Source of the DNA: a virus
Virus record (IMG/VR): IMGVR_UViG_3300008085_000023
Coordinates: 64,001-128,000 of that record
DNA length: 64,000 nt
Direction: 5' to 3' (one strand)
This document shows, piece by piece, positions 1,517 to 35,465 of this stretch. Numbering within the stretch: the first letter of the stretch is position 1; each line of letters opens with the position of its first letter. The translations under genes and the position numbers were made by a program. Below the pieces are notes generated by a model that searched no databases, was not told where the DNA came from, and saw only the letters and a list, made by a program, of their open reading frames with translations.

Positions 1517-2430
1517 TGAAAGAAGTCCTCCAAACTTGCTCTCGGTTCCGTTGACCATCCAATAGCGTCTAACACATTTTGAATAGGATCAATATATGTT
1601 TTAGTGAACTGAAGTTCATAATCAATATAGCGTTCAAGACCCAATTCAGTTGGCAACTTATCATCAGGGTACGATATCACATTTTCGTTTATAGGATTAG
1701 GCAACTTAAGATAAACGAACTTGATCTTATCGCCATTGAAGATACTGTGATATTTCCGCAGCTTCTTTGTCTTAAGCATATTGTTATAAAGGATCGCACC
1801 TCTCGCATGGATAGGTGTGCCTTTTGCATATCCATTGTTCGTAACATACTTGGCGACGTCTGATACTGAGCGAGGGAAAGATACTTCATGAATAGGTGCA
1901 TTGAAAAACTTAACCTTGAATTTAGCTACAGCATTTTGAACAGCATGTTCGTCTTCATTCATGATAACATTGAAGATAGATTTCATCGCAGTACGACATA
2001 TCTGTGGTGTAGATGACTTAACGCATTCCAATCCCATGACCTTAAGCTTAGGCTCAGCATAGCGTACACCTTCAGAGTCAAGTACATTAAGGATGTAATG
2101 CTTTTTGCCTGTCCAAAGACCACGGTCGGCGATTACCTCACGGGCCATCACCATACGATTTTCAATCGCACCATGGTGTGCTGCAAATCGTTCGAAGGCT
2201 TCATTGAAAACCTCCACCATAAAGCGCTCACCAAATTCGTTCAGGAATTTAACAGGATCCTTTGGCTTAAACTTTTCAATCACATCCTTAACGCTGATGT
2301 ACAGCGAATTATGCACGCATATATTATTACCAAAAAAGTTGTGATTGCGTTCAACCTCAATGTCATAGACATCTATTTCCTGTATGCCTAAATCCTCTAC
2401 TTCGAAATCATTATACTCGAGTTCTAACAT
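1513..2430 (-). CDS. 43: DNA polymerase C-terminal piece fused to split-intein C-fragment
   Basis: 41-aa IntC ending VHN, then SLY..., KKHYIL, KVMGLECVKSSTP of family B polymerase. Confidence 0.92.
   Translation of the reverse strand: MLELEYNDFEVEDLGIQEIDVYDIEVERNHNFFGNNICVHNSLYISVKDVIEKFKPKDPVKFLNEFGERFMVEVFNEAFERFAAHHGAIENRMVMAREVIADRGLWTGKKHYILNVLDSEGVRYAEPKLKVMGLECVKSSTPQICRTAMKSIFNVIMNEDEHAVQNAVAKFKVKFFNAPIHEVSFPRSVSDVAKYVTNNGYAKGTPIHARGAILYNNMLKTKKLRKYHSIFNGDKIKFVYLKLPNPINENVISYPDDKLPTELGLERYIDYELQFTKTYIDPIQNVLDAIGWSTEPRASLEDFFQ
2308..2430 (-). mobile_element. split intein C-fragment (pol motif C site)
   Basis: VYDIEVERNHNFFGNNICVHN/S: blocks F and G. Confidence 0.92.
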
Positions 2431-3490
2431 AATCTAAAATCCTTTCAATACACTCTGCGGGGTTACGATCCCAATCTCTCTCCCATATCATTATAACAGG
2501 AAACTTGCGACTTATAAACAAATAATTGTTTTTGAAATCATCAGCCGCCCATTTTTCCCTTGCGGTTAAATTGGTGCATCCTCTACCTCGTAATTTATCG
2601 CTCGGCTTGTATAAACTGGGGTTGCCATGATAATGATCGCCATTAAATTCAATCGCAAATTTATACTTTAGAGATACAAAATCGTACTTGAATAAGCAAT
2701 TTTTCACATCGCACCAAACACCATATTCATTCTCTCCATAAAACATTCGTGAATCTTCAAATAATTTAGTATTAGCAAGACGTGAAAAAAGCGCGAAAGA
2801 CTTTTTGCTGTAGAAAGATCTTTGGGAATTAATATATGCATAGTATCGATCAGTGCCATTCTCCTCACCATATCTTTCAATGTACACTGGTAAAGTATGG
2901 CTCTTTTGACGATTAATACTACGGTAGCGCTCAGTTCCCAGGTGTTCTTCAGAATTAGTATATGCTTGTCGCGATCGGTAGTCTTCCCACATTTTTCTAC
3001 CAATTACATCGCCATGTCTACTAATGAAGTTTGCTAGCGTGCAAGAGCGAGAGCGATTAAACTCGTCAAACTCCTTTTTCGTCCACCCAAACCTTCTGTT
3101 CTTATACTCGAATGTATTTGATTCACCCTGTCTTTTGCGATAAGCAGTGAAGCGTCTTTGGCCTTCGCTCTTGCCGTACCTTTCTATCAGTATCTTTAAC
3201 GAAACCCCCCTTGGCCGATGGAGATCATACTGTATTTGCCCTTCTTCATCACCGTATTGCAGCTGATACCGTTCAAGAGTATTGGCTGCGGCGATTTCCG
3301 CTAATCGAATGCAAGCAGAGCAGAATTCTTCCCATGTTCTTAAATTGCGAGCAATAAGGCGGCGGAATCCCACAGTTCGGCGATATCTCCAAATAATCAT
3401 AAAGTCGTCATAATCAATTTTATCAATGTCTGGAATATATGGAATTAACGCCCGAAGCGCATTATAGTGTTTTATCTGTATCTTATGCAT
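2411..3490 (-). CDS. free-standing homing endonuclease (Vsr/EDxHD-like) between intein halves
   Basis: YDFV..KFAIEFNGDHYHGNP...IWERDW; ERYG repeats; late promoter at 3497-3504 favours ATG 3490. Confidence 0.8.
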   Translation of the reverse strand: MHKIQIKHYNALRALIPYIPDIDKIDYDDFMIIWRYRRTVGFRRLIARNLRTWEEFCSACIRLAEIAAANTLERYQLQYGDEEGQIQYDLHRPRGVSLKILIERYGKSEGQRRFTAYRKRQGESNTFEYKNRRFGWTKKEFDEFNRSRSCTLANFISRHGDVIGRKMWEDYRSRQAYTNSEEHLGTERYRSINRQKSHTLPVYIERYGEENGTDRYYAYINSQRSFYSKKSFALFSRLANTKLFEDSRMFYGENEYGVWCDVKNCLFKYDFVSLKYKFAIEFNGDHYHGNPSLYKPSDKLRGRGCTNLTAREKWAADDFKNNYLFISRKFPVIMIWERDWDRNPAECIERILDYVRTRV

Positions 3491-4389
3491 GTACAATATT
3501 TATAATCTGGTGTTTTTTGGTGTTAAGATCCTTTGGCTTAATCGAAAAAACCTTTTTAGACGTTCTATCCCGAACAATACAAGAATGATCTTCTGTGACG
3601 TCAACACTGCCTCTTGGTGTCTTGATACGGAACATCCGCTTTTTAACACTATGCTTCATGACATAGTTAATACGTCTTTCCTCAAGCTTTGCTGTAGAAG
3701 ATACAGAAAGGGTCGTGCAATCTAAATGGCTTGTAGACTTGACGTAATCGCGGTTAAAGTCGTCCTTACGGATATAATGGTCTTCATCTACAGATTCGTA
3801 AAATTCAGCAATAGTCGTTTCCTGACCGTTAACCAAAAGACTGGTTGAACCAGCAACACTATCAGTGTCAATCGCAATTACACGATCTTTGTCCTTCGTA
3901 CCTAAGAAAGCATTAAGTTTTTCATTGATGATACGTTCAGCAAACTGAATAACAGCTTGACCTGTTAATGTAACACCTTCTGCAATACGCAAGTCGAAGT
4001 AACGAAAGTATTGATTAGCCAAGGCGCCATACAGGCTATTTAATCATTGTGTTCAAAATACTGCGTTACGGTATTCCCGGGATTTCCCCAGCTCATATTT
4101 TCATACGAGATCAGACTATATCTTCAACTCAATGAGTTGCCGAGCGCTTCCATTCACTTGAATGTACTCCTTGCGGATAGTCGTTGCACCTTCCACTTTG
4201 TGGCTTGGCTCAGTATTAGCATTTGAAAGCCTTCACTGAATTCACACGGTGTTAACGTGAGCATCGCTGCTCACGGTCCCACTATTTTAGGATCTTGTAA
4301 GCCATTTGCTGATTAGAGAACACCTCAATCTTAGCATCGAGAGTGTGTATCTTCAATCGCAGCTCTGCTATTCTTTCTTCTTTATTCAT
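3483..4389 (-). CDS. 43: DNA polymerase middle piece (exons 4389-4289 and 4044-3483) fused to split-intein N-fragment
   Basis: splicing restores QMAYKIL-LNSLYGALAN (motif B); extein ends IAIDTD; SD GAAAGG before ATG 4389. Confidence 0.9.
3486..3860 (-). mobile_element. split intein N-fragment (125 aa)
   Basis: starts SVAGST directly after DTD; block B VTEDHS; ends at a stop codon. Confidence 0.9.
4045..4288 (-). ncRNA. group I intron (244 nt, no ORF) in DNA polymerase
   Basis: 5' exon ends in U paired to G of GGGAC (P1); terminal G; P4 TCAGT/ACTGA; P7 GACTA/GATATAGTC; removal restores frame and motif. Confidence 0.92.
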
Positions 4390-4413
4390 AAAACTACCTT
4401 TCATTAGAGAACC

Positions 4414-4443
4414 ATTATACCACAATTCACTAAGCATGTACAC
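4414..4443 (-). promoter_or_regulatory. early-type promoter for second pol gene
   Basis: GTGTACA-N17-TATAAT. Confidence 0.8.
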
Positions 4444-5185
4444 TGATGTTTTTACAGTTTGAAAAATGATACCTAGTCATATTACCTCCACTGCCTTCAA
4501 CACCACAATGAGGGCACTTCACTAGCTTTAGAGAGCGTGGTTTACGAAGCTGCAATAGTTGACGCTGTTTAACGGAAGGAGTTATGCCTTGGACAAATCC
4601 CATTGGAATAGCTTCACCATCTCGTAAATATATTGTTTCATCCGTCAAATGATTAGAGTATAAGCGTCGGCCTCTAATACCATTTTTCGACATCTTTGAT
4701 CGTGTAGCATGGCTATGACTAGATCCAGTTCTATAATATACTAACTCCCCCGAGACGTATCGTGGATCATTAACTGCTACTCTAAACGTTTCGCCAATTG
4801 CGTTCTTCACGACAACATAACCCGTTGAACGTTTAGATATTTCATCACGGACAGATTGGCTACGCTTCCGGCCACGGTTTGATGTTGAAATAGCACTACT
4901 AATATATTTTCTAGCAGCCTCGTATAAAACCGACCGACCATTACAAACTCGTTTCATCATATTGAATGCAAACCAAAGCTTGCTATTATTTGTGCTTTTA
5001 GCAAGCAAATAATGGGCGATAAAATGCGCGCGATATGGAAGTTTTATGATATTGGTTTCGTCGTCTGTTCCGCCAGCACACTTAGGTATAATATGGTGTA
5101 GTTCACCTTCAGAAATAATCTGCGAACTATAGTGTTCAATAAAGCGCTGGTAACGACCGTAATAATGTTGTGAGTATATGTTCAT
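4430..5185 (-). CDS. HNH homing endonuclease (Mob-like)
   Basis: ELHHIIPKCAGGTDDETNIIKLPYRAHFIAH; C-terminal CPHC; TATAAATA upstream. Confidence 0.88.
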   Translation of the reverse strand: MNIYSQHYYGRYQRFIEHYSSQIISEGELHHIIPKCAGGTDDETNIIKLPYRAHFIAHYLLAKSTNNSKLWFAFNMMKRVCNGRSVLYEAARKYISSAISTSNRGRKRSQSVRDEISKRSTGYVVVKNAIGETFRVAVNDPRYVSGELVYYRTGSSHSHATRSKMSKNGIRGRRLYSNHLTDETIYLRDGEAIPMGFVQGITPSVKQRQLLQLRKPRSLKLVKCPHCGVEGSGGNMTRYHFSNCKNISVHA

Positions 5186-5218
5186 ACAGACTATTTATAC
5201 TTTAGAAGCTTTAACTCT

Positions 5219-6709
5219 CTATACGGCTTCCAGCAAGCTCAGATCGTTCAACAAAGCTTCCCTTTCCTGCATCGCTTCGATCATCTTGCCTTTGAGACCT
5301 TTGCGCTTAGCATAAATTTCACTAACAATCATTGGGATGAACCCCACTTTGTTAGTTTTGAACTGAGCGCCATTCGCAGCTACGGTTATATCTGGATCAT
5401 CAACTCTAAACGTTTCGTCAATGAAACCTTGGACAGATGCCTCAAGATTGCGCTTAGGCAAAAGAGTTTCCGTAGACATATTGTTCTGAATAATCAACGA
5501 TGGGTACAACGAATTTAAATCGAAACTCATCACCCAATCATGCATACCAACCTGCGGTATTTTAACGAAACCTCCTGCATAACTGGTTGCGGTTTTTCCA
5601 GCATTTGAGATGGGAGGTACAACATTAGCTTCGCACAATCTACGATAAATGATGCCATCCCAGATTGGTGTGGTTTTCAAAGCGTCAGCATAATTCGTGC
5701 CGGCCATATATGATAGTGTGAAGCAAATGTCAATGAATCCAAGCTTATCATCTAAAGCGTCAACCAAACCAACGTCCTTGATGTTGTATTCAATAAACTT
5801 TTGAAAGTTCTTTTCGTACAGGTCATTAAGGTTGCCGATTTCAGAATAGTCCAACTTCGTTTCACCAAGGACTATGTGAGCGATATGATTGAGTGTATAT
5901 GACTCTTGGTTGCCATAGGTATATGCAAACTTTTTGAAGAGTTCAATATAGTCAAGATGCTGGATGCCTGATATCTCAAACGTCGGGCGCTTCTGACCAT
6001 AGAAGTTGACGTCTCGTGCTGAGATAAGTTTCCATGGCGAAAGCAACTTAGCGGTGCCCTCACCTAACACCGCTTCAATACGATTAATGAGATACGGAAC
6101 ATCGAAAAACATTGTGTTCCAACCAGTTAAAACGTCGGGACGATTATATGGTTGCTGCCACCATTCTAAAAAGGTGTTAAGCATATCGGCTTCATCTTTG
6201 CATGGGATAAAGTTCACACCGTCCATATGTGGAGCATACTGCTTTTTGAAAGCAAAGACGTAATACTGACCGTCCCGCGATTGCTTAATAGTAATGGCGC
6301 GGACTTCCTCGGCCGCGGTAGCCGGATTAGGAAACCCATCGCCCACTGCAGTCTCAATATCCATGTTGGAAATATTGATGAAGCGAGAATCATAGTCAAC
6401 ACGGCCTGGAAACTTTTCCTGGGTGAAGGCCATGACATGACGGTCGGTACCAAAGATTTCGAAGCTAGGAATATGTTTATATTGATTGACGAAGTCGCGC
6501 ATATCGCGCATAGAATCAAGGCGCACCTCTTTAACCGGTGCGCCAAAGATCGACTTCTTATCAGTAGCTTCGTTCTTGTCTTTAGTGGGGATGAAAACCT
6601 TTGGCTTAAACATAACGCGTTTCTCAATGCGTTTGCCTTCACCATCGTAGCCGCAGTAAAGCAGCTTGTTACCAAATCTATCTATTGATGTATAAAATTC
6701 ACTGTTCAT
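5219..6709 (-). CDS. 43: DNA polymerase N-terminal piece (exonuclease + motif A), gp43A-like
   Basis: DIET, GWNTMFFDVPY, YNIKDV, SFDLNSLYPS; stops in the fingers helix; ATG 6709 chosen from promoter position. Confidence 0.93.
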   Translation of the reverse strand: MNSEFYTSIDRFGNKLLYCGYDGEGKRIEKRVMFKPKVFIPTKDKNEATDKKSIFGAPVKEVRLDSMRDMRDFVNQYKHIPSFEIFGTDRHVMAFTQEKFPGRVDYDSRFINISNMDIETAVGDGFPNPATAAEEVRAITIKQSRDGQYYVFAFKKQYAPHMDGVNFIPCKDEADMLNTFLEWWQQPYNRPDVLTGWNTMFFDVPYLINRIEAVLGEGTAKLLSPWKLISARDVNFYGQKRPTFEISGIQHLDYIELFKKFAYTYGNQESYTLNHIAHIVLGETKLDYSEIGNLNDLYEKNFQKFIEYNIKDVGLVDALDDKLGFIDICFTLSYMAGTNYADALKTTPIWDGIIYRRLCEANVVPPISNAGKTATSYAGGFVKIPQVGMHDWVMSFDLNSLYPSLIIQNNMSTETLLPKRNLEASVQGFIDETFRVDDPDITVAANGAQFKTNKVGFIPMIVSEIYAKRKGLKGKMIEAMQEREALLNDLSLLEAV

Positions 6710-6715
6710 AGATTT

Positions 6716-6745
6716 ATTATAACACAAAGGGAGCAGATTGTACAC
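6716..6745 (-). promoter_or_regulatory. early-type promoter
   Basis: GTGTACA-N17-TATAAT. Confidence 0.8.
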
Positions 6746-25673: not shown

Positions 25674-25749
25674 TGGAGGATGCAGTGAGAATCCAACTCA
25701 CACAATCACGGTTTGCAGCCGTGCGCCTTTAGCATTCAGCCATACACCC
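25674..25749 (-). tRNA. tRNA-Cys(GCA)
   Basis: cloverleaf, CCA; T-loop TTGGATT. Confidence 0.88.
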
Positions 25750-25767
25750 ATTAAACTACTTTGATCT

Positions 25768-25797
25768 ATATTAACATATTTAGGTGTAATTGTACAC
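25768..25797 (-). promoter_or_regulatory. early-type promoter for tRNA-Cys
   Basis: GTGTACA-N17-TAATAT. Confidence 0.7.
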
Positions 25798-25962
25798 CAT
25801 TAGTTTTGCTGCCCAAGGTGAAAGCTCTCACCTTAGGACTTTAAATAGGTCAACCTTTAAGTCGCATTATTGGAATTGCTTCTTCACATATTACATATAT
25901 CGGAGACTCATACGTCCAATTTGACGTCTCCTATTATGCGTATACCGATTGAATGTGTAAAT

Positions 25963-26044
25963 TGGTGCGGATGGTGAGAATCGAACTCACAAATAATTCA
26001 CCAAGGTTTGAGCTTGGCCGCTTTGCCAGATTGCGTACATCCGC
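25963..26044 (-). tRNA. tRNA-Leu(CAA)
   Basis: class II cloverleaf, CCA. Confidence 0.92.
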
Positions 26045-26053
26045 ATTTTGAAA

Positions 26054-26127
26054 TGGTTGCTTCACCGGGATTCGCACCCAGACAAAGAGCTTCAAAGACT
26101 CCTGTGCTGCTATTACACTATGAAGCA
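26054..26127 (-). tRNA. tRNA-Gln(TTG)
   Basis: cloverleaf, CCA. Confidence 0.88.
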
Positions 26128-26133
26128 ATAAAA

Positions 26134-26215
26134 TGGTACCAGTGGAGGGAATCGAACCCACAAACATATCACCTGCTTCTAAGGCAGGCCGCTTTGCCAG
26201 ATTGCGTACACTGGT
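26134..26215 (-). tRNA. tRNA-Leu(TAG)
   Basis: class II cloverleaf, CCA. Confidence 0.92.
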
Positions 26216-26379
26216 ATTAAAATGTGTTTAGTAGTGAACTTTACAACGCGAGAATTTATTGCTTCGCTCCACAATCGCTATATCAAGCAATTACTTCTGT
26301 TAGCATCAACCATCCTCGTAGATGTGATATCATCTATCTTCAACGTATTTCACAGTGTGATACCATGACTAAACATAAA

Positions 26380-26463
26380 TGGTGTGGATAGGGAGACTTG
26401 AACTCCCACGCCTTTCAGCACAACGTTCTCGACGTTGCATGTCTGCCATTTCATCATATCCAC
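26380..26463 (-). tRNA. tRNA-Leu(GAG), C33 variant
   Basis: class II cloverleaf, loop TC-GAG-AA, CCA. Confidence 0.85.
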
Positions 26464-26586
26464 ATAAAAGGTTTCGGCCCTTTGGAGATTTGAGCATTAT
26501 CTATATTCTTGCTACTTATGCGCTGGGAATATTGCTTAGACAAGAGGCTTTCCTCATTGGCCTTGACACTCGTCAGTGCCCATTAT

Positions 26587-26668
26587 TGGTGCGGATGGCG
26601 AGACTCGAACTCGCAAATAAATCACCAAGGTTTAAGCTTGGCCGCTTTGCCAGATTGCGTACATCCGC
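26587..26668 (-). tRNA. tRNA-Leu(TAA)
   Basis: near copy of Leu(CAA), CCA. Confidence 0.92.
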
Positions 26669-26719
26669 ATGAATTGACACTAAAAGGATTCGAACCTTCA
26701 TCTCTCTTACTTTAATCGA

Positions 26720-26795
26720 TGGTGCGATAGGCGGGGTACGATCCCGCAACCTCCACGTTGGCAACGTGGTATTCTCCCAGTTGAATTACTATCGC
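26720..26795 (-). tRNA. tRNA-Gly(GCC)
   Basis: cloverleaf, CCA. Confidence 0.88.
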
Positions 26796-26801
26796 ATAAA
26801 C

Positions 26802-26875
26802 TGGAGCCGACAGACAGACTTGAACTGACATCATCTGATTACGAAACAGATATTCTTCCTTTGAACTATATCGGC
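26802..26875 (-). tRNA. tRNA-Thr(CGT)
   Basis: cloverleaf, CCA. Confidence 0.85.
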
Positions 26876-26880
26876 GAAAT

Positions 26881-26956
26881 TGGTGCACCGGCAGGGACTC
26901 GAACCCTGATCTCACGCATTAAAAGTGCGTTGCTAAGCCAATTTAGCTACCGATGC
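26881..26956 (-). tRNA. tRNA-Lys(TTT)
   Basis: cloverleaf, CCA. Confidence 0.92.
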
Positions 26957-26965
26957 ATTTTAAAT

Positions 26966-27041
26966 TGGTACCTCTGTTCGGTAACGATCCGAATTCTCCG
27001 GGGTAAAGGCCCGGTCATCATCCATATAATGTTTCAGAGGC
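26966..27041 (-). tRNA. tRNA-Lys(TTT), atypical loop
   Basis: paralog of Lys(CTT) at 31370; loop CC-TTT-AC. Confidence 0.75.
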
Positions 27042-27050
27042 ATTGTAAAG

Positions 27051-27126
27051 TGGAGCCGACACTGAGACTTAAACTCAGTTCCCATCCGTACCAAGGATGA
27101 ATTCTAATCAGTTGAACTATGTCGGC
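27051..27126 (-). tRNA. tRNA-Thr(GGT)
   Basis: cloverleaf, CCA. Confidence 0.87.
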
Positions 27127-27137
27127 ATTAAAAAAAA

Positions 27138-27213
27138 TGGTTGGCCTGAGTGGATTTGAACCACTAACCTGCTGAGTCAGAGTCAGCCGCACCGCCAATT
27201 GTGCTACAGGCCA
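27138..27213 (-). tRNA. tRNA-Gln(CTG)
   Basis: cloverleaf, CCA. Confidence 0.92.
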
Positions 27214-27219
27214 ATAAGA

Positions 27220-27294
27220 TGGTCCCTAAGGAGAATTTCGAAATCTCGACATTTCGGATATGAACCGAACGCTCTGCCTCTGAGCTACCTAGGG
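27220..27294 (-). tRNA. tRNA-Met(CAT) (elongator Met or Ile2)
   Basis: cloverleaf, CCA. Confidence 0.85.
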
Positions 27295-27299
27295 ATGAA

Positions 27300-27390
27300 T
27301 GGCGGAAGTAAGAGGTATCGAACCCCAACCGCTTTTACACGGTCCAACTGTTTAGCAAACAGCGCCCATCACCATCAGGGATTTACTTCC
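27300..27390 (-). tRNA. tRNA-Ser(GCT)
   Basis: class II cloverleaf, G73, CCA. Confidence 0.9.
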
Positions 27391-27396
27391 AAAAAT

Positions 27397-27471
27397 TGGC
27401 TCGCGAGGCTGGATTCGAACCAGCGACAACTTGCTTAACAGGCAAACGCTCTACCACTGAACTACACGCGA
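27397..27471 (-). tRNA. tRNA-Asn(GTT)
   Basis: cloverleaf, CCA. Confidence 0.93.
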
Positions 27472-27478
27472 ATTAAAT

Positions 27479-27554
27479 TGGAGCCGCCACACAGACTCGA
27501 ACTGTGATCACTGGAGTACAAAACCAGGGCTCTAAGCCTTTGAGCTATAGCGGC
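27479..27554 (-). tRNA. tRNA-Thr(TGT)
   Basis: cloverleaf, CCA. Confidence 0.9.
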
Positions 27555-27561
27555 AATAAAT

Positions 27562-27637
27562 TGGTACTCCTACTAGGACTCGAACCTAGACTAAAAGCTT
27601 AGAAGGCTCTTGTGCTATTCCCTTACACCATAAGAGT
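27562..27637 (-). tRNA. tRNA-Arg(TCT)
   Basis: cloverleaf, CCA. Confidence 0.92.
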
Positions 27638-27645
27638 ATTAAAAT

Positions 27646-27721
27646 TGGTGGCACAGGTGGGGAATGATCCCACGACCGGCAGGGTTTCAATCTGCTACTC
27701 TACCAACTGAGTTACTGTACC
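27646..27721 (-). tRNA. tRNA-Phe(GAA)
   Basis: cloverleaf, CCA; T-loop ATCATTC. Confidence 0.85.
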
Positions 27722-27728
27722 ATGAAAT

Positions 27729-27812
27729 TGGTGGCGAAGGTAGGAATTGCACTTACAAGTCCGAAGAGGGTGATTTACAATCACTTGAGCCCACTACCTG
27801 CTCAACTCCGCC
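27729..27812 (-). tRNA. tRNA-Tyr(GTA)
   Basis: class II cloverleaf, CCA. Confidence 0.85.
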
Positions 27813-27821
27813 GTGTTAAAT

Positions 27822-27910
27822 TGGTGGGAAATGGTGGTAACGCACCACTTGTCTACTTCCGTTCTGTTTTTCGACGTTGGTTTTACAGACCAATGAACGG
27901 TACATCTCCC
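27822..27910 (-). tRNA. D-armless tRNA-Tyr(GTA)-like
   Basis: 7-bp acceptor, anticodon arm CT-GTA-AA, T arm, ACCA; only 10 nt in place of the D arm. Confidence 0.75.
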
Positions 27911-27976
27911 AAATAAAAATATGGGCCCTTATTACGGGTTTTCGACCGCGCGAGGGGCTAACGCCATGCTATTTGT

Positions 27977-28143
27977 TTTTGAAAGAGGTTCACCATAAAC
28001 GCTCAACAATTACCTAGGATGTTAAGCTTTCTCTGCTGACGTATCTTGCGATTGGATAGCTAATCCGGTGCGGCGAGAGTCGATTTAAGGACGTTTGCCA
28101 GACAAAACTAGAAACTGACCACAGACTGGTGAATCTTTCAAAA
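27977..28143 (-). ncRNA. unassigned structured RNA
   Basis: 17-bp terminal helix enclosing several hairpins, between tRNAs. Confidence 0.6.
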
Positions 28144-28220
28144 TGGTAGGACAGTTCAGAATCGAACTGAAATTATTTCTCGGTGTAAACGAGGTGCCAT
28201 AACCATTAGGCGACTGTCCC
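28144..28220 (-). tRNA. tRNA-Val(TAC)
   Basis: cloverleaf, CCA. Confidence 0.87.
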
Positions 28221-28900
28221 TACATAAATTTTCCACGAAGACCATCTCGTTTGCGGCCTTTCGTGTGATGTTGTGTATTTTCGTATCTCTTAATCAATGC
28301 TTCTTTTACATTTTTTACATGCTCAAGTGTTTTTGGTGTGCCCTTAAGCGCGTTTTTTACAATTGCTCTTCGACAATTCTCTGAACAAGACATACGATCC
28401 AAGCTAATTGATTTACCACAGTTTTTACAAAGGCCAGAACCCCTTTTATTCCAAGCGCTTCTGCCTTTCACCCACCCTTTCGGAATAATGGTATCATTAG
28501 AAATTCGGCTATTCTCTTTAAGCTCGATATTAGAAATCCACATTGTTCCAAACGAGCCATTAAATTTACCAACGCGCTTCTTACCATTAGCGCGCCATGT
28601 ATCTAAGCACATTTTTCGAACCGCTTCATACATGCGGGAATTGCGAATATGAGGAATACCACGTTCTTCACATCTCATTGCCATCATATGACAAGCATGG
28701 GCCATCTGTTTATTTTTATATATTCTAAATAAAAGTAGATGAGCAATCCAATGTTCACGACCTGTTAAAATTACTATATTAGTTAAAGAATAATCACCAC
28801 CCATTGATTTGGGTAATATGTGATGCCGCTCGGTATAGCCTATGGCCGGGTGCTGAAGACGTGTATTGATTAGTGAATCGTAAATATATTTGTAGTTCAT
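28220..28900 (-). CDS. HNH homing endonuclease (Mob-like)
   Basis: YTERHHILPKSMGG...NIVILTGREHWIAH; start ATG 28900 after TATAAATA. Confidence 0.88.
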   Translation of the reverse strand: MNYKYIYDSLINTRLQHPAIGYTERHHILPKSMGGDYSLTNIVILTGREHWIAHLLLFRIYKNKQMAHACHMMAMRCEERGIPHIRNSRMYEAVRKMCLDTWRANGKKRVGKFNGSFGTMWISNIELKENSRISNDTIIPKGWVKGRSAWNKRGSGLCKNCGKSISLDRMSCSENCRRAIVKNALKGTPKTLEHVKNVKEALIKRYENTQHHTKGRKRDGLRGKFM

Positions 28901-28926
28901 AAGGTTATTTATATATTTGCGAACTT

Positions 28927-28984
28927 TCAAACCCCCACAATCTGCGTGTAAAACAGAGGTTCTAGACCTTTGAACTAACAGGGC
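28927..28984 (-). pseudogene. truncated tRNA-Val(TAC)
   Basis: acceptor 5' strand, D arm and anticodon arm present; breaks off in the T loop. Confidence 0.75.
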
Positions 28985-28992
28985 ATTAAAAT

Positions 28993-29083
28993 TGGCGGAT
29001 GGAGTGAGACTCGAACTCACACGTGTTTTACCACTAACTGTTTTCAAGACAGCAGCCCGTAGACCGACTTGGCTTATCCATCC
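28993..29083 (-). tRNA. tRNA-Ser(TGA)
   Basis: class II cloverleaf, CCA. Confidence 0.92.
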
Positions 29084-29093
29084 ATAAAAAATT

Positions 29094-29163
29094 GTTCGGT
29101 GTCCTACCGTTAGACGACCACCCCGCAGTGGAGTAAGCAGGACTCGAACCTGCATTTCCGAAC
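29094..29163 (-). ncRNA. circularly permuted tRNA-like RNA (YrlA-type topology)
   Basis: order T arm, loop-closed acceptor stem, D arm; ends pair as the anticodon stem. Confidence 0.8.
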
Positions 29164-29169
29164 GTTCAT

Positions 29170-29268
29170 TGGTCAGGGATGTGGGATTCGAACCCACGAG
29201 GCATACACGCTTAGTATACCTATCCGGTTCCAAGCCGGACGAAGATAACCAGACTCTTCCAATCCCTG
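29170..29268 (-). tRNA. tRNA-Pro(TGG) with long variable arm
   Basis: C1-G72, A73, CCA; about 26-nt paired variable arm. Confidence 0.85.
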
Positions 29269-29273
29269 TAAAT

Positions 29274-29348
29274 TGGTGCCCTCTGAGAGAATCAAACTCC
29301 CATCATTCGGTTCGTAGCCGAGTATTCTATTCGTTGAAATAAGAGGGC
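29274..29348 (-). tRNA. tRNA-Arg(ACG)
   Basis: cloverleaf, CCA. Confidence 0.85.
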
Positions 29349-29359
29349 ATCTTATAAAT

Positions 29360-29445
29360 TGGCACCTAGGGTAGGAGTCGAACCTACAGTTGACTTTCGT
29401 CGACGGGTTAACAGCCCGCTGCAATACCATTCTGCTCACCTAGGT
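29360..29445 (-). tRNA. tRNA-Asn(GTT) with long variable arm
   Basis: G73, CCA; GAC-GAAA-GTC variable hairpin. Confidence 0.83.
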
Positions 29446-29453
29446 ATTAAAAT

Positions 29454-29527
29454 TGGCGCCCCATAGGAGTATCGATCTCCTTCTGCTACCGTGACAGGGT
29501 AGTGTGCTTCCATTACACCAATGGGGC
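29454..29527 (-). tRNA. tRNA-Asp(GTC)
   Basis: cloverleaf, CCA. Confidence 0.9.
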
Positions 29528-29535
29528 TTGTAAAT

Positions 29536-29610
29536 TGGTGCGGCAACTGAGTAACGCTCTCAGAACTAATGGGTGGAAGCCATTCGTGTATCTATTAACA
29601 CCTCTGCCGC
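29536..29610 (-). tRNA. tRNA-Gly(TCC)
   Basis: cloverleaf, CCA; T-loop AGCGTTA. Confidence 0.83.
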
Positions 29611-29751
29611 TCGAAAAATGAGAGAGGATCCTTACCATCACTATTCTAAATTTGTGATGATCATTTAATTTCCGGATAGGAGAAGTCTTTAGAAACCTCT
29701 ACGTCCTTGCCCTACTCTGAAACCCCTCGTAACAGAATCAACAGGCAATAT

Positions 29752-29826
29752 TGGGTTGACCAACGGAAATCGAATCCGTATCCCCGCATTCACAGTGCAG
29801 TGCTTTTGCCGTTAAGCTATGGCCAA
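29752..29826 (-). tRNA. tRNA-His(GTG)
   Basis: cloverleaf, C73, CCA; no encoded G-1. Confidence 0.88.
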
Positions 29827-29837
29827 ATTGTAAAAAT

Positions 29838-29914
29838 TGGTGCCCCCATCGGGCTTCGAACCCGAATCGCCGGATTGAGAGTCCAGTATTCTATACCGTT
29901 TAAACTATGGGGAC
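29838..29914 (-). tRNA. tRNA-Glu(CTC)
   Basis: cloverleaf, CCA. Confidence 0.9.
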
Positions 29915-29921
29915 GATAAAT

Positions 29922-29996
29922 TGGTGCCTCCTGTAAAACTCGAACTTACAACGTCAGGTTCGTAGCCTGATGTGATATCCGTTTCACCAAAGAAGC
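29922..29996 (-). tRNA. tRNA-Arg(ACG)
   Basis: cloverleaf, CCA. Confidence 0.88.
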
Positions 29997-30005
29997 AATA
30001 CCGTA

Positions 30006-30674
30006 TTAAAACTTTATCTTACGGCCGATAAGCCAGCCCTCAGGCACCAGCATATCTTTTGGAACTCGTTTTGAGACCTTTTCATATGGGTTGTAAATCC
30101 ACTTGGTCCCAAATTGGGAATTCCGACTGCCCAATTGACTAATTTTATTAGCCGACCCGATTCTTTTCTTAGCATCTTCTGAATGAGTTTTGCCAAGAAA
30201 TGCTCGAGTATTCTTACGCTTTAAGAAATCTGGATCATCTTCAATTTTTAGTTTCAAACCCGTAACCCCTTGAATTGCGAGAATACTTCGCCAATTAGGA
30301 CCATACTTCGCCTTTAATTTTTCATCTGCAGCGATCCGGCCTTTACGGGCAACTTCAACGTTGGAAAATCCATTGAGATTGTTTTTATTGATTAAATCCC
30401 AACCTCCAGAACCACCAACCTTTAGGTTATATGTGTTTTCTTCAGTTAAGAAATCTTCATTAACGATCTCAGCTTCTTTAGCATACATGTCTTCAGGGTT
30501 GTCGTAAACGAACAAAATCTCTTTGGTAAAGTTTTCAATACCATTCTTCTTTTGAGCTCGTTTTAGATACTTACCTGAACCCATATAATTGTCATTCGGA
30601 TCAATGGTCTTATGGCTTCCAATATAGAACTTGCCATTGATCCGATTCGTTATCTTGTATATCGTATAGAACAT
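30006..30674 (-). CDS. GIY-YIG homing endonuclease (Seg-like)
   Basis: IYKITNRINGKFYIGSH, YMGSG, YNLKVGG, NUMOD3-like GKTHSED. Confidence 0.92.
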   Translation of the reverse strand: MFYTIYKITNRINGKFYIGSHKTIDPNDNYMGSGKYLKRAQKKNGIENFTKEILFVYDNPEDMYAKEAEIVNEDFLTEENTYNLKVGGSGGWDLINKNNLNGFSNVEVARKGRIAADEKLKAKYGPNWRSILAIQGVTGLKLKIEDDPDFLKRKNTRAFLGKTHSEDAKKRIGSANKISQLGSRNSQFGTKWIYNPYEKVSKRVPKDMLVPEGWLIGRKIKF

Positions 30675-30730
30675 AGAATTACTCCATGTTCTTATTTATA
30701 CAAGTTCGAGTCTTGACTAGACTCTGAAAG

Positions 30731-30803
30731 TAGCGGAGGTTGGAATCGAACCAACGTCACTGGGGTTATGAGCCGCAGCGGGGAACCAGCACCCCACTCT
30801 GCA
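30731..30803 (-). tRNA. tRNA-Met(CAT), initiator-like, degenerate
   Basis: 1:72 mismatch, loop CT-CAT-AA, bulged anticodon stem, no CCA. Confidence 0.7.
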
Positions 30804-30806
30804 AAT

Positions 30807-30881
30807 TGGTACCCCTGAGCGGTTTCGATCCGCCTCCCTTTGGGTGAAAACCAAAGATCCTAGCCAGTAGACGACAGGGGC
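30807..30881 (-). tRNA. tRNA-Glu(TTC)
   Basis: cloverleaf, CCA. Confidence 0.9.
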
Positions 30882-30893
30882 ATTAAAAATTGT

Positions 30894-30968
30894 TGGTGGA
30901 CGATGCCGAACTCGAATCGGCATCCTCTGAGTGCAGGTCAGAGATTCTAGCCTTTGAACTAATCGCCC
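30894..30968 (-). tRNA. tRNA-Ala(TGC), C33 variant
   Basis: G3-U70, CCA; loop CC-TGC-AC. Confidence 0.88.
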
Positions 30969-31118
30969 TTAAAATGAAAATATAATGATCTATGTTTTAG
31001 CTGTTGATCACGGTCTACAACCATATCAACAAATTTCGAAAATGATAATGTTGATAAGCAAAATTCAGCTTTAAGCTGAGAAATATACTTTGCGAACTTT
31101 GAACAACTTCTATGCAAT

Positions 31119-31196
31119 TGGTACGAGGAGAGGGCCTTGAACCCCCATATCAACTGGTTATAAGCCAGCCGGCTTCACCGATTTGCCTATCCTCGC
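31119..31196 (-). tRNA. tRNA-Ile(TAT)
   Basis: loop CT-TAT-AA, A73, CCA. Confidence 0.87.
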
Positions 31197-31203
31197 ATTA
31201 AAA

Positions 31204-31278
31204 TGGTCCGCGATGGTGGTAACGCACCACCTTTCCCTGTGTATCAGACAGGAGTAATAACTTTTATACTAATCGCGG
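31204..31278 (-). tRNA. tRNA-Ile(GAT)
   Basis: cloverleaf, CCA. Confidence 0.85.
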
Positions 31279-31284
31279 ATAAAT

Positions 31285-31359
31285 TGGCAGGTCCACCCAG
31301 ATTCGAACTGAGACAATGAGTTTTGGAGACTCTCGTGCTACGCATTACACTATGAACCT
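31285..31359 (-). tRNA. tRNA-Trp(CCA)
   Basis: cloverleaf, G73, CCA. Confidence 0.9.
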
Positions 31360-31591: not shown

Positions 31592-31625
31592 AAACATAAA
31601 CGAGCTATGTATGCGTCTTAACCGA
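31579..31625 (-). promoter_or_regulatory. antiterminator hairpin overlapping leader stop codon
   Basis: 31625-31606 pairs with 31598-31579 at 18 of 20 positions. Confidence 0.8.
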
Positions 31626-31719: not shown

Positions 31720-31727
31720 TCTACTCT

Positions 31728-31735
31728 TATTTATA
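31728..31735 (-). promoter_or_regulatory. T4-type late promoter
   Basis: TATAAATA. Confidence 0.75.
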
Positions 31736-31790
31736 CAACTTACTGCCTTCAATCTCAAATTATTTTCAATTATTTTCAAACTCTGGTAAT

Positions 31791-31906
31791 ACTATACCAC
31801 AATGTCCGTGGATTGTACACCGTTATTTTTCAATAACCGCTGCTTTCAGGTTGCTATCCCTTTAGCATCTAGATCTAGTATAACACAATGGCCATGGCAT
31901 GTACAC
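31791..31906 (-). promoter_or_regulatory. two tandem early-type promoters for the tRNA operon
   Basis: GTGTACA-N17-TATAGT (31791-31820) and GTGTACA-N17-TATACT (31877-31906). Confidence 0.8.
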
Positions 31907-31996
31907 CATTATTTTCAGTTTTCGGTAACTTTTTTGCTAAGTTGGCCATTATCAGGTACTTAGGGCTAAAAATAGTTTCCCGTACCGCGCGCGCGC

Positions 31997-33391
31997 CTAT
32001 ATATTAAGATCGCACACGCCGCCTGCACATGCCTGAGAGCCCATTTCATCTGCCTTTATTAAAAAGCTCTCTTCCACGAGGTTCACCCAATCTACAGTTT
32101 TATATGTGCGTGATAGGTCACACCATAGTTTCCAGTTAGAAACATCCTTGAGGCAATACGTCATTTGACGAAGATCGCCATTGAAATAGCGATCAGCAAA
32201 CTGCCGGCCCCGGCGGATCCAATCCATTTTTGCCGTGCGGGAATGTATAAAATCGTTTGATGGACAATCATAAGCGTCTATTGGTTCAAATTCTGTGTTT
32301 TCGCCAACACCTAATAATGTATCACACGCACGATATAGATTCTTGAAAGCCGCTAGGCCATCAACAATCATTCCAGATGCAAACACTGAAGCATCTCCAT
32401 ACATTTTGACTAGTTCTAAAGGTGAGTATACAGCACAGAATGGCGCTTGGTCGTAGTCCTTATCACCTGCGAACGACAATAGGGAAATACCAGCAAAGCT
32501 TTTACGGTTACGATAAATGTAGCTTTCGACAGCATCCCATTCATTATCCTGAAGTGTGATAGTGTTAGAGACGTTATTCCGTACAAAGTCTCTAACGCAT
32601 AATTCCTTTGTTGTGCCTTCTTCGACCCAATTCATTTGAGTCAGTTTAACATGCTCAAGCAAATCAATAGCAGACATCTTATTCTTAACCTTAGCGCCAT
32701 CTGGCACCTCGCACAAGAAGGTGATGACTTCATCGGTATCGTTAGCGCTCCATACACTATCTTCAACAGCATCAATATTTACGGATTTGAAATGTTGTGC
32801 AGGAAACTCTAGTTTATTAGCTTGAACTCTACGCATATATCGTTTGGCGTGATGAGGATGAATTCCAGAAGCAGTTCCCAATATGCAGCTTGCGCTTCCG
32901 CTCGGTTTGACGCATGTGCAGCGTGCGGCGGGATTGATGCCTATAAGATTTGCTGTAATCCGATTCCACTTCTTGACGACTCTCGCGCCTTTTCGCTGAA
33001 TACGTTCATCAAACAATACTTCAGGATTATCCATCATACCTGTAATAGAAACACCAAGCAGAGCTTCGCGGCGGGTGATCTTTTCTGTTATTTCACCAAG
33101 ATATGGGAAGTCTGTATATCCTGCCTGAAGTGTACCCAGAATTGCGGCGGCCTTGCACGCATCATAAAACTTTTCTTCATCAGAAGCCTTCTTCCCATTA
33201 ATCTCTGTAAGGTTGCAAAACTGAAAGCCTGATTCTTCAGATCCATCATCATTATACCAAATGGGCCACATCCCGATTTCAACGCAGTTGTGTACAAGCA
33301 TTCCATTTGCAAAAAAGTTATGATTACTTTCTACAGTAATATCATATACATCTTCATTGCGTTCAATTGAGAGTCTTTTAACTTTGGACAC
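31997..33391 (-). CDS. nrdJ: ribonucleotide reductase (class II, NrdJ-type) C-terminal piece fused to IntC
   Basis: 35-aa IntC then CVEI, FCNLTEIN, TCVKPSG, C-terminal CAGGVC. Confidence 0.88.
   Translation of the reverse strand: MSKVKRLSIERNEDVYDITVESNHNFFANGMLVHNCVEIGMWPIWYNDDGSEESGFQFCNLTEINGKKASDEEKFYDACKAAAILGTLQAGYTDFPYLGEITEKITRREALLGVSITGMMDNPEVLFDERIQRKGARVVKKWNRITANLIGINPAARCTCVKPSGSASCILGTASGIHPHHAKRYMRRVQANKLEFPAQHFKSVNIDAVEDSVWSANDTDEVITFLCEVPDGAKVKNKMSAIDLLEHVKLTQMNWVEEGTTKELCVRDFVRNNVSNTITLQDNEWDAVESYIYRNRKSFAGISLLSFAGDKDYDQAPFCAVYSPLELVKMYGDASVFASGMIVDGLAAFKNLYRACDTLLGVGENTEFEPIDAYDCPSNDFIHSRTAKMDWIRRGRQFADRYFNGDLRQMTYCLKDVSNWKLWCDLSRTYKTVDWVNLVEESFLIKADEMGSQACAGGVCDLNI
33287..33391 (-). 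mobile_element. split intein C-fragment
   Basis: VYDITVESNHNFFANGMLVHN/C. Confidence 0.93.
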
Positions 33392-34142
33392 GTCTTACCT
33401 CTTTCCATTTCTGTAATTCTTTTTCATAAGTTGATCTTTCTTCAATAAATTTACAAATTGACTTTCCTTTAATAATGCAAACTTCAACATCAGTAATTTC
33501 ACTGAGGATAATGGCTTTATCTGAGTTATTATCCCAATATCCTTTAATCTCAACAATTTTTAACAAATTCCAGTTATCGTCATATAGAAAAAAATCCGGA
33601 CGATAGATTCGGCCATCTGGCATTACGTAATGCGTAACTTCAATTTTCCAATTTTGTTTAGTACGGTTGAGCCACTTCGCAAAGATGAATTCGTATGTTG
33701 ATCTTAACCAAACATCATTATTTGTTGTGCTATTATAAAAATACCCCTGAACACCTCGGGCGTTGTACTTTTTAATTTTACGTCTAATATCTGGATTAAA
33801 CCATCCACTATGCGTTTTCCATTCACTAATTGCTTTATCAGATCTTCTTTTTCGTAGAGCGTCAGTTACAACGGACTGTCCTTTGCGAAGTGGAATTTGA
33901 TATAGATTCATCACTTGGCGCATTAACATATATGACGTGTTCAATTCCTTAGCAATGACCTTTAGACCTTCTTTGTCTATTAGGTATCTTTTATTTAGCA
34001 AATCATACAATTCTTGACCTGTGGGTGAAAGCATTCTTTCATATCTGAAGTTTTGGCGCTCGTTCTGAGTAAAATTACACCAAAAGGGATGGCACGAATC
34101 ATATTTTCCATATAATCTATAAAATAACATTTGTGAATCCAT
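33378..34142 (-). CDS. free-standing PD-(D/E)XK endonuclease between intein halves
   Basis: RSTYE...YRPDFF...VEIKGYW; TATAAATA upstream. Confidence 0.82.
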   Translation of the reverse strand: MDSQMLFYRLYGKYDSCHPFWCNFTQNERQNFRYERMLSPTGQELYDLLNKRYLIDKEGLKVIAKELNTSYMLMRQVMNLYQIPLRKGQSVVTDALRKRRSDKAISEWKTHSGWFNPDIRRKIKKYNARGVQGYFYNSTTNNDVWLRSTYEFIFAKWLNRTKQNWKIEVTHYVMPDGRIYRPDFFLYDDNWNLLKIVEIKGYWDNNSDKAIILSEITDVEVCIIKGKSICKFIEERSTYEKELQKWKEVRRVQS

Positions 34143-34157
34143 GTTATTATTTATAAA

Positions 34158-35465
34158 TCATAGAATTTCAACATCATCGTCTTCTGTCAAATCTTTTGCT
34201 TCAACATATCCTCTATTAGTTGTCCATATCTTATGATCGGGCGTGCATTTAAGAAACTGACCATTGCATAATTCAATTTTAACTATTTCCGCGTCAGCAC
34301 GAGTCATCGCAGCATTAGTAATCGTTTTCCATTCACGAACGTTAGTCTCAATATTCATACTTAATGCTTCTAGCGTAACCTTCTTCGATATAAACAAACT
34401 AACCAAAACGTCCATTCGCACAAGCCGTTCTTCGCCATTCACTTTTACGTTGACCAATGTATCAGCAGTCACGCATGGGTTTACACTTACATTTTCATGC
34501 TCGGCCCATACAAACCCCGGCTCGCCGAATTCGCGGGTCTGTTTGAATAGATCTGCAAATTGCTGACGACCCACATCATTTCGAATAAGAAGAGCGCTGT
34601 TATTACTTCGAGCACGCTGGGGATTAGTCAGGAACCAATCTCCAGTTTTTGCCATGGCCATTTCTGTATCTTCTGGCGAAAACAAATTGATACAAGCGGA
34701 TCTACGGATACCACCTGACAGAACCGAGTCAGAGATGTGCATCAGAATATCATAGCAGTCAATTGGAGGTAACTGGACGGTTCCAGAATCACTTGATTCT
34801 ATTCGCCTATTAATCAACCCCTGTATACGCTCCAACGCCCTCTCGAGGCCCTCAGGACCAGGTGCAATTCCACCCCAACTGATCAAAGAACCTCTTGGAC
34901 GAATCTTGGAAAAATCAAATTCAATGTGCCAACCGAAGTATTCTGGAAATGGCTGATCTTCAACAAAGAAGGAAGACATAAGAACACCAACAGCATCGGC
35001 CCAACCTTCGACACTATCTTCAACGACATACTTTTTAGCACCAACGGTTTCGCGATATACTCGTTTTTGAACCTTTGGCAACTTGTTGACATGACAATAC
35101 TGCGTCGAAAATCCTACACCAACTCCACACAGCAAAAGGTATAGGGCTTCTTGGAATGCCCGAGGGCGGTCAACATGACCAGATGAGCAATTATAGATTC
35201 GTTCGTTTTTCTTAAGGATAGCTTCTCCTCCAAATTGCAATGCTCGCTGTGAACCAAGGATTGTCTTTGAAGCCAATGCCCGTTCTGCAATAGAAATGAG
35301 CTCGCGAAGTTCTTCCGACTGTGCAAGCTCATTTACATATTTTCTACGGTGCATATCAAAAACCCGATCCACTGTTTCGCGGAATGTTTCACGACGTTTC
35401 TTCTCTGGAAGATGACGCGCATAGCGTGAATAAAAAATGTAATCCTGTAACGCTCGAATGCTCAT
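34158..35465 (-). CDS. nrdJ: ribonucleotide reductase N-terminal piece fused to IntN
   Basis: SRYAR..RRET, YNCS, GVGVGFS, GGIRRSA, GEPG, NP then intein. Confidence 0.88.
   Translation of the reverse strand: MSIRALQDYIFYSRYARHLPEKKRRETFRETVDRVFDMHRRKYVNELAQSEELRELISIAERALASKTILGSQRALQFGGEAILKKNERIYNCSSGHVDRPRAFQEALYLLLCGVGVGFSTQYCHVNKLPKVQKRVYRETVGAKKYVVEDSVEGWADAVGVLMSSFFVEDQPFPEYFGWHIEFDFSKIRPRGSLISWGGIAPGPEGLERALERIQGLINRRIESSDSGTVQLPPIDCYDILMHISDSVLSGGIRRSACINLFSPEDTEMAMAKTGDWFLTNPQRARSNNSALLIRNDVGRQQFADLFKQTREFGEPGFVWAEHENVSVNPCVTADTLVNVKVNGEERLVRMDVLVSLFISKKVTLEALSMNIETNVREWKTITNAAMTRADAEIVKIELCNGQFLKCTPDHKIWTTNRGYVEAKDLTEDDDVEIL
34161..34475 (-). mobile_element. split intein N-fragment (105 aa)
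   Basis: CVTADT...CTPDHKIWTTNRGYVEAKDL then stop. Confidence 0.93.

Follow-up and report, generated by a model that had tools for sequence, protein, structure and literature searches.

Described split inteins of the polymerase and reductase families

Fractured genes, in which an N-intein half-gene, a free-standing endonuclease gene and a C-intein half-gene lie on one strand, were described by Dassa, London, Stoddard, Schueler-Furman and Pietrokovski (2009, PMC2677866). Both charge polarities, together with opposite local charges of the interface strands, were already documented in that study from short metagenomic fragments, a material unable to reveal which inteins reside together in one genome. 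Two described families are relevant here: NrdJ-1 from ocean metagenomes (Dassa et al. 2009; PDB 8UBS) and the Aes123 PolB1 intein (PDB 9HTH), parent of CL and CLm, with its Aes508 locus in JN377894. The AesN and AesC halves carry opposite charges and associate by capture and collapse, and in vitro splicing has been shown for the Aes123 homologue (PMC11923092). The combination of both families is already carried by the cultured Campylobacter phage F379 of the CP21 group (MT932329 and others), one genome of which holds a PolB split intein with an acidic C-intein and a ribonucleotide reductase (RNR) split intein with a basic C-intein head, akin to the reductase intein studied here.

The stretch of DNA analysed here (64,000 nucleotides of IMG/VR record IMGVR_UViG_3300008085_000023, hereafter the window) matches the fractured gene layout at two loci, PolB and NrdJ. 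A preliminary description had reported these as two split inteins of opposite charge polarity in one genome; both are present, but the 142-kb genome contains four, the other two being atypically split inteins in the terminase, both outside the window. Unlike the published fragments, it thus places four split inteins together. The two loci most probably represent the usual kind of fractured gene, in an uncultured T4-like phage, in which each polarity would be inherited with its intein family and the opposition between them would be a by-product.

Organization of the fractured polymerase and reductase genes

The features of both loci are listed in Table 1. All are encoded on the minus strand with the borders outlined previously, the last base of the PolB C-intein (IntC) being position 2308 and the first base of the NrdJ N-intein (IntN) position 34475.

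Table 1. Features of the fractured polymerase and reductase genes in the window
Feature	Coordinates	Strand	Evidence
gp43A, N-terminal part of PolB with exonuclease domain and motif A, own stop codon	5219..6745	-	Pfam DNA_pol_B_exo1 3.4e-20, DNA_pol_B 1.3e-15; colinear with uninterrupted homologues
HNH homing endonuclease gene, free-standing, between gp43A and gp43B	4430..5185	-	PHROG 655 homing endonuclease 5.8e-42
gp43B exon 1 (MNKEER...QQMAYKIL)	4289..4389	-	Joined product colinear with homologues across motif B
ORF-less group I intron in motif B (K-I-L/L-N-S-L-Y-G)	4045..4288	-	Rfam RF00028, 95.7 bits, at 4298..4092
gp43B exon 2, N-extein with ..AIDTD (motif C) at its end	3861..4044	-	Colinear alignment
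PolB N-intein, 125 aa; Ser1, TEDH in block B, C-terminal tail basic	3486..3860	-	PDB 9HTH (Aes123 PolB1 intein), E 2.5e-20
Vsr-like homing endonuclease gene, free-standing, overlapping both PolB intein ORFs	2411..3496	-	31% identical (E 1e-32) to Aes508_035; PHROG 22677
PolB C-intein, 41 aa, net -10, VHN end; SD-like AAGGA upstream	2308..2430	-	9HTH, E 1.8e-15
PolB C-extein, Ser+1 first (SLYISV)	1513..2307	-	tblastn match to T4-like polymerases, beginning at residue 41
NrdJ N-extein, ending ..VNP	34476..35465	-	Pfam RNR-II_ins_dom; colinear alignment
NrdJ N-intein, 105 aa; Cys1, TPDH in block B, LTEDDDVEIL as acidic tail	34161..34475	-	PDB 8UBS (NrdJ-1 intein), E 1.5e-14
PD-(D/E)xK-type endonuclease gene, free-standing	33378..34142	-	PHROG 9019/945; 61% identical to L107 endonuclease in equivalent place
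NrdJ C-intein, 35 aa, with GTG as start codon, basic head and VHN end; GAGG upstream	33287..33391	-	8UBS, E 3.2e-5; L107 ortholog
NrdJ C-extein, Cys+1 first (CVEIG)	31997..33286	-	Colinear alignment

Gap-free colinear alignment with uninterrupted homologues sets the polymerase intein borders at ..VIAIDTD/S..HN/SLYISV (slashes marking junctions), so that the insertion falls between DTD and S of family-B polymerase motif C. The nucleophiles are Ser1 and Ser+1 (SVAGST...VHN/SLY), and catalysis would need no cysteine; since the intein retains three non-catalytic cysteines, the term cysteine-less holds solely at the catalytic positions. The splice sites of the gp43B intron were assigned by the U/...G/ rule and gap-free colinearity. 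An arrangement with the HNH reading frame inside a single large intron was considered and refuted by the Rfam match and the reading frame, as the 244-nt ORF-less intron lies downstream of the separate gp43B start and the HNH gene stands free of it. A megablast with the polymerase locus gave no match among phage records, and the genome is distant from cultured phages, with polymerase identity below 50%.

The polymerase locus resembles that of Aes508, whose GenBank layout likewise comprises gp43A, a homing endonuclease gene, a group I intron with the N-intein, a Vsr-like ORF (Aes508_035, annotated with a VSR endonuclease domain) and the C-intein. The host gene and the motif C site are shared with Aes123 PolB1, the Aes508 junction reading YIDTD/SVVGDT, as are Ser1, Ser+1, the terminal HN, the conserved MKH histidine region, the acidic IntC, the basic IntN tail and the split at the endonuclease position with an intervening Vsr-like gene. 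However, the IntN is just ~43% identical to that of Aes123 PolB1 (32 of 43 aligned residues in the IntC), and the three non-catalytic cysteines set the window intein apart. Also, gp43A and gp43B are separated by an HNH gene here and by a GIY-YIG gene in Aes508, and the group I intron near motif B lies before NSLYG in the window and after NSLYGA in Aes508.

In the reductase, colinear gap-free alignment with uninterrupted homologues places the borders at ..VNP/C..HN/CVEIG. The Cys+1 is the conserved cysteine of the NPCxEI motif, the thiyl-radical active site according to Dassa et al. (2009, PMC2677866). Both intein halves are homologous to those of NrdJ-1 and share with it the CTPDH..NRGYV..DLT(E/D)DD tail, the basic IntC head, Cys1 and the fractured layout in a class II reductase. 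The insertion sites differ, the window intein standing directly before the active-site cysteine (NP/C), the common RNR/NrdA site, and NrdJ-1 one residue further C-terminal (PMC2677866); the intervening endonuclease of the window, of the PD-(D/E)xK type, is a further difference. Judged by site and homology, the window intein is a relative of NrdJ-1 at a neighbouring site and not the same allele. F379 differs from the window in its reductase, a class Ia NrdA, in its PolB IntN tail, which is not basic (-2), and in its intervening ORFs, which are partly decayed.

Predicted assembly and splicing

From these features we infer that both inteins splice, assemble by charge-assisted association and do not cross-splice. 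Each essential gene would have been invaded by an intein whose endonuclease is now a free-standing gene between the N- and C-intein half-genes, each polarity having been brought in with its own intein through homing: an Aes123 PolB1-type intein, a family whose IntN tail is basic and whose IntC is acidic, and a NrdJ-1-type intein, a family in which the tail is acidic and the head basic. After translation, the disordered, oppositely charged cognate IntN tail and IntC head would attract each other (capture), and the captured halves would fold into the HINT horseshoe (collapse) before ligation of the exteins, presumably by Ser1/Ser+1 chemistry in PolB and Cys1/Cys+1 chemistry in NrdJ.

A different reading, that one or both inteins are splicing-dead and the enzyme halves form non-covalent complexes in which the charges serve docking alone, draws on the break between gp43A and gp43B, which are separately translated with no intein between them, so that the polymerase evidently tolerates non-covalent assembly. 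It is nonetheless quite improbable, as both inteins retain an intact Ser1 or Cys1, T-x-x-H in block B, D..H in block F, a terminal HN and a Ser or Cys at +1, the insertions within motif C and just before the reductase active-site cysteine would disrupt the active sites if left unspliced, and the Aes123 homologue is splicing-competent in vitro.

Charge distribution in the two split inteins

The charges ascribed to the four intein pieces were borne out by recounting. The PolB IntC contains 11 acidic residues (4 Asp, 7 Glu), no Lys and a single Arg. Its IntN has a net charge of +5 overall and -6 across the first 50 aa, and the Lys/Arg-rich tail (last 30 aa) of +6, from 6 Lys, 2 Arg and 2 Asp. In NrdJ, the IntN is net -5, as are its closing 10 aa (LTEDDDVEIL), and the basic start of the IntC amounts to +3 in the first 11 aa; since the whole NrdJ IntC is just -1, the reversal on this side is local, confined to tail and head, and not global. 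The resemblance of the F and G blocks was likewise confirmed, 15 of the 23 C-terminal residues (65%) being identical between the two IntC pieces; in the IntN pieces merely 21 of 125 residues are common (~17%).

A reading of the charges as compositional chance without any role draws on the size of the single values: the four intein charge values fall only within the 1.5%, 2.0%, 0.6% and 5.7% tails of all equal-length segments in the genome's own ORFs of at least 150 aa. Chance is, however, the least credible of the explanations weighed and highly improbable: IntN tail and IntC head charges are anticorrelated over 15 natural pairs (Spearman rho -0.70, p 0.003, kinship ignored), the charge patterns are kept in relatives at 35-45% identity, and charge-driven association has been demonstrated experimentally for related inteins (PMC11923092).

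Polarity across relatives and its bearing on specificity

In order to identify relatives, searches with the exteins were performed; these returned nearly exclusively intein-less alleles, which fixed the borders and gave few intein relatives, and a search with the IntN alone succeeded. A regular-expression scan for C-inteins overlooked the terminase inteins and the PolB pair of the window, which were treated by hand. The genomes compared are those reached by homology to the PolB and NrdJ intein families and constitute a biased sample.

The DTD/S insertion site is common to the window, Aes508, L123, L125, L127 and F379. The net charge of the IntC is -10 in the window, -12 in L123, -11 in Aes508 and -8 in F379, and that of L125 and L127 is acidic too, judged by eye. 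In the complete genome of Aeromonas phage Aes508 no intein was found besides the PolB one. An acidic IntC in all PolB-family members examined, including Aes508, marks polarity as a lineage trait. In L107, the closest NrdJ relative found, one NrdJ contains three split inteins, all of the acidic-N/basic-C type, and the N-pieces of both terminase inteins in the window's genome are acidic. In all three cases polarity follows the intein lineage and not the presence of a second intein.

These patterns bear on the proposal of the preliminary description that charge reversal prevents cross-splicing between polymerase and reductase. The local charges are indeed opposite and like charges would meet in both cross pairs, a physically plausible source of repulsion; also, with the F and G blocks so similar, discrimination must come from elsewhere, and engineered charge networks have rendered NpuDnaB halves orthogonal (Beyer et al., bioRxiv 10.1101/546465). 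Opposite polarity between co-resident canonical inteins occurs in three genomes, those of the window, of F379 and of G005 (in its NrdA), which were found by homology and are not independent. The causal part of the proposal, in which reversal is the mechanism, perhaps an adaptation, that stops cross-splicing and yields a charge-encoded orthogonal set, is however unlikely, given that polarity is fixed per family with or without a second intein and that like polarities coexist in L107 and acidic N-pieces in the terminase. Moreover, NrdJ-1 and IMPDH-1 are orthogonal despite their like polarity (Dassa et al. 2009, PMC2677866; Pinto 2020, PMC7090010), and a charge-swapped NpuDnaE IntN retains splicing with the wild-type IntC (bioRxiv 10.1101/546465).

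Charge complementarity is therefore neither necessary for orthogonality nor demonstrated as its mechanism; the mixed outcomes of published charge swaps suggest that it probably accelerates the assembly of cognate halves and contributes some discrimination. The PolB and NrdJ split inteins are very probably mutually orthogonal, with specificity arising mainly from the strongly diverged IntN/IntC interface and the opposition of charges probably adding repulsion between non-cognate pairs. Since each polarity comes from an intein family known before, the opposition is most probably nothing out of the ordinary, and no dedicated safeguard against mispairing.

Some selection for divergent polarity may still have operated. 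There is a slim chance that in phages with several canonically split inteins selection favours sets of unlike polarity, through the retention or acquisition of inteins that differ in this respect, so that charge would be a single evolved layer among several in an orthogonality code; if so, the pairing of PolB(+/-) with NrdJ(-/+) in the window's genome, in F379 and in the NrdA of G005 would be beyond coincidence.

The engineering value foreseen for the pair is small, as the toolbox already includes the characterised NrdJ-1 and Aes123 PolB1 with its derivatives CL and CLm, and mutually orthogonal split inteins are numerous. The genome instead offers a tidy natural example: to make three essential enzymes, a gene break and a group I intron must be correctly resolved along with four split inteins. 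The comparison of relatives speaks against charge polarity as the code that separates the inteins, and the three like-polarity inteins within the single NrdJ of L107 steer studies of specificity to interface sequence over net charge.

Organization of the two split loci

The window covers bases 64001-128000 of an IMG/VR virus record (141,905 bp) that has direct terminal repeats, and its polymerase (PolB) is T4-like, yet less than 50% identical to those of cultured phages. All genes treated at the PolB and NrdJ loci lie on the minus strand. At both loci the end of the endonuclease ORF is overlapped by the C-intein (IntC) ORF, which in each case has a Shine-Dalgarno-like motif. The polymerase region (1513-6745, minus strand) needs three repairs together, namely of the gp43A/gp43B gene break with its free-standing HNH gene, of the motif B intron and of the motif C split intein.

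Features of the split loci, the tRNA arrays and the terminase region (window positions unless stated)
Feature	Position	Strand	Evidence
gp43A, exonuclease domain and motif A, own stop	6745..5219	-	domain match
HNH homing endonuclease gene, free-standing	5185..4430	-	PHROG 655, 5.8e-42
gp43B exon 1	4389..4289	-	
Group I intron, 244 nt, ORF-less, motif B	4288..4045	-	Rfam RF00028, 95.7 bits
gp43B exon 2, ends ..AIDTD	4044..3861	-	
PolB N-intein	3860..3486	-	
Vsr-like endonuclease gene, 361 aa	3496..2411	-	
PolB C-intein	2430..2308	-	
Remainder of polymerase	2307..1513	-	
NrdJ N-extein	35465..34476	-	
NrdJ N-intein	34475..34161	-	
PD-(D/E)xK-type endonuclease gene, NrdJ locus	34142..33378	-	
NrdJ C-intein, GTG start	33391..33287	-	
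NrdJ C-extein	33286..31997	-	
HNH homing endonuclease gene inside tRNA arrays; 5' part overlaps tRNA-like sequence	28220-29233		
GIY-YIG homing endonuclease gene inside tRNA arrays	30006-30674		
tmRNA gene	43835-44202		Rfam 100.5 bits
Terminase large subunit, three ORFs (L004)	G000:C1:130807-134729, outside window	-	

Intein borders were obtained by joining the predicted exteins and aligning the products with homologues on viral contigs that have no interruption. The polymerase intron (QQMAYKIL^LNSLYGAL; caret, junction) and intein (VIAIDTD^SLYISVKDV) junctions aligned without gaps against L006, L008 and L010, as did the NrdJ junction (VNP^CVEIGMWP) against L087, L088, L089 and L113. Therefore, Ser is both the first residue of the PolB intein and the residue after it; for the NrdJ intein the first residue is Cys, and the residue after it is the conserved active-site Cys of NPCxEI, the thiyl-radical site (Dassa et al. 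2009, PMC2677866). The inteins are absent from most close extein relatives, as expected of mobile elements.

Relationship to known intein families

Each intein adds a new member to a known family, and their arrangement is known as well. For the PolB intein the match is to the Aes123 PolB1 intein, whose structure is solved (PDB 9HTH; N-intein, IntN, 2.5e-20; IntC, 1.8e-15), and for the NrdJ IntN it is to NrdJ-1 (PDB 8UBS; 1.5e-14); both loci are 'fractured genes' as described by Dassa et al. 2009. The related Aeromonas phage Aes508 has the gene order of the window in its GenBank annotation: gp43A, a homing endonuclease, gp43B-1 (which holds the group I intron and the N-intein), a VSR-domain ORF and gp43B-2 with the C-intein; the PolB insertion site is identical (YIDTD^S), and the VSR-domain endonuclease shares 31% identity with the Vsr-like one of the window. 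However, the Aes508 intron lies about 7 codons further downstream and its first endonuclease is GIY-YIG instead of HNH.

The NrdJ intein (junctions, 34473-34475 / 33284-33286) immediately precedes the active-site Cys (NP^C), at the position common in NrdA, whereas NrdJ-1, its closest solved relative, is described as inserted one residue further on, with Ser+1 (Dassa et al. 2009), so that related inteins are found at neighbouring sites. Both Campylobacter phage F379 and phage CJLB-13 gave matches to PolB and RNR intein queries alike, and in F379 both PolB and NrdA are split, with intervening ORFs.

Charge polarity and discrimination between the pairs

The preliminary description had proposed that the opposite charges of the two split inteins prevent cross-splicing, making them an orthogonal pair. 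The opposite charges themselves were confirmed: the PolB IntC has 11 Asp/Glu and one Arg (net -10), the last 30 residues of its IntN carry +6, and the NrdJ IntN ends in the acidic LTEDDDVEIL (-5). The basic start ascribed to the NrdJ IntC holds for its first 11 residues (+3), but the whole IntC is only -1. These four charge values fall in the 0.6-5.7% tails of the genome's own proteins. In blocks F/G the two C-inteins are identical at 15/23 residues, and the N-inteins have 21 of 125 residues in common.

The proposed interpretation is supported in part. Cross-reaction between the two pairs is very improbable, and repulsion of like charges would contribute to this. Nevertheless, the charge reversal is a family trait acquired by inheritance, unnecessary for discrimination and a candidate mechanism at most. 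All lineages examined have an acidic PolB-family IntC (net charge, as computed, -10 in the window, -12 in contig locus L123, -11 in Aes508 and -8 in F379; L125 and L127 judged by eye), and in F379, as in the window, an acidic PolB IntC accompanies a basic RNR IntC head (+3, NrdA). The complete 160-kb genome of Aes508 gave no intein matches besides the PolB intein.

The closest NrdJ relative found (L107:1452-5939, IMGVR_UViG_3300008255_001543; 69% identity over the best tblastn segment) encodes NrdJ as four pieces that are linked through three split inteins, with the same endonuclease as the NrdJ locus of the window (61%). All three inteins have an acidic IntN tail and a basic IntC head, and two of them share an almost identical DL(T/N)xDDDV tail and (M/V)xKIK(K/R)I head. 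The terminase of the window genome, encoded as three pieces, has two inteins with an atypical split, and the short N-piece of each is acidic. Therefore, same-polarity split inteins coexist, even inside one protein, and polarity is, judging by these loci, not tied to co-residence of inteins.

Within pairs, the IntC head and the last 20 IntN residues have anticorrelated net charges (Spearman -0.70, p 0.003; 15 natural pairs from the loci, relatedness ignored), and this complementarity is real. In L128a and L131 the acidic tail is weak and the basic head is missing too, which suggests co-evolution within pairs. Opposite local charges on the interface strands have been reported (Dassa et al. 2009, PMC2677866), and the two oppositely charged pieces of the Aes intein are described as assembling by electrostatically driven capture and collapse (PMC11923092; PMC13014065). 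Among the mutually orthogonal gp41-1, gp41-8, NrdJ-1 and IMPDH-1 (PMC7090010), NrdJ-1 and IMPDH-1 have the same polarity despite their orthogonality. In a direct test, the NpuDnaE N-piece retained splicing with the wild-type C-piece after its charges had been swapped, whereas NpuDnaB halves did become orthogonal through engineered charges (Beyer et al., bioRxiv 10.1101/546465).

Other gene breaks and mobile elements

In L107 the endonuclease gene, an ortholog of the one at the NrdJ locus of the window, occurs at the middle intein only, the other gaps being 44 and about 110 nt. The terminase inteins are AceL/GOS TerL-like, with a short N-piece and a C-piece of roughly 100 aa; the first N-piece continues in frame, without a stop, into a GIY-YIG endonuclease domain, which predicts a TerL-N/IntN/endonuclease fusion protein. 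In L128/L129:3552-7027 (records G005, 306 kb, and G002, 141 kb, with 12 and 8 intein-model matches, respectively) two split inteins divide NrdA into three pieces, and endonuclease genes are lacking; in the first intein the tail is near-neutral and the head acidic, and the second combines an acidic tail with a basic head.

In L131-L133:4104-6296 the RNR intein halves share a frame; nothing but a stop and 19 nt lies between them, and an endonuclease gene is absent. This may represent recent endonuclease loss or a minimal break. The relative L123/L124:3034-5348 has its gp43A/gp43B break at the finger-tip position as well, but stop and start overlap there, and both the endonuclease gene and the intron are absent. 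Finally, about 30 tRNA genes occur in arrays at 25677-31359 and 42660-45091 (minus strand) of the window.
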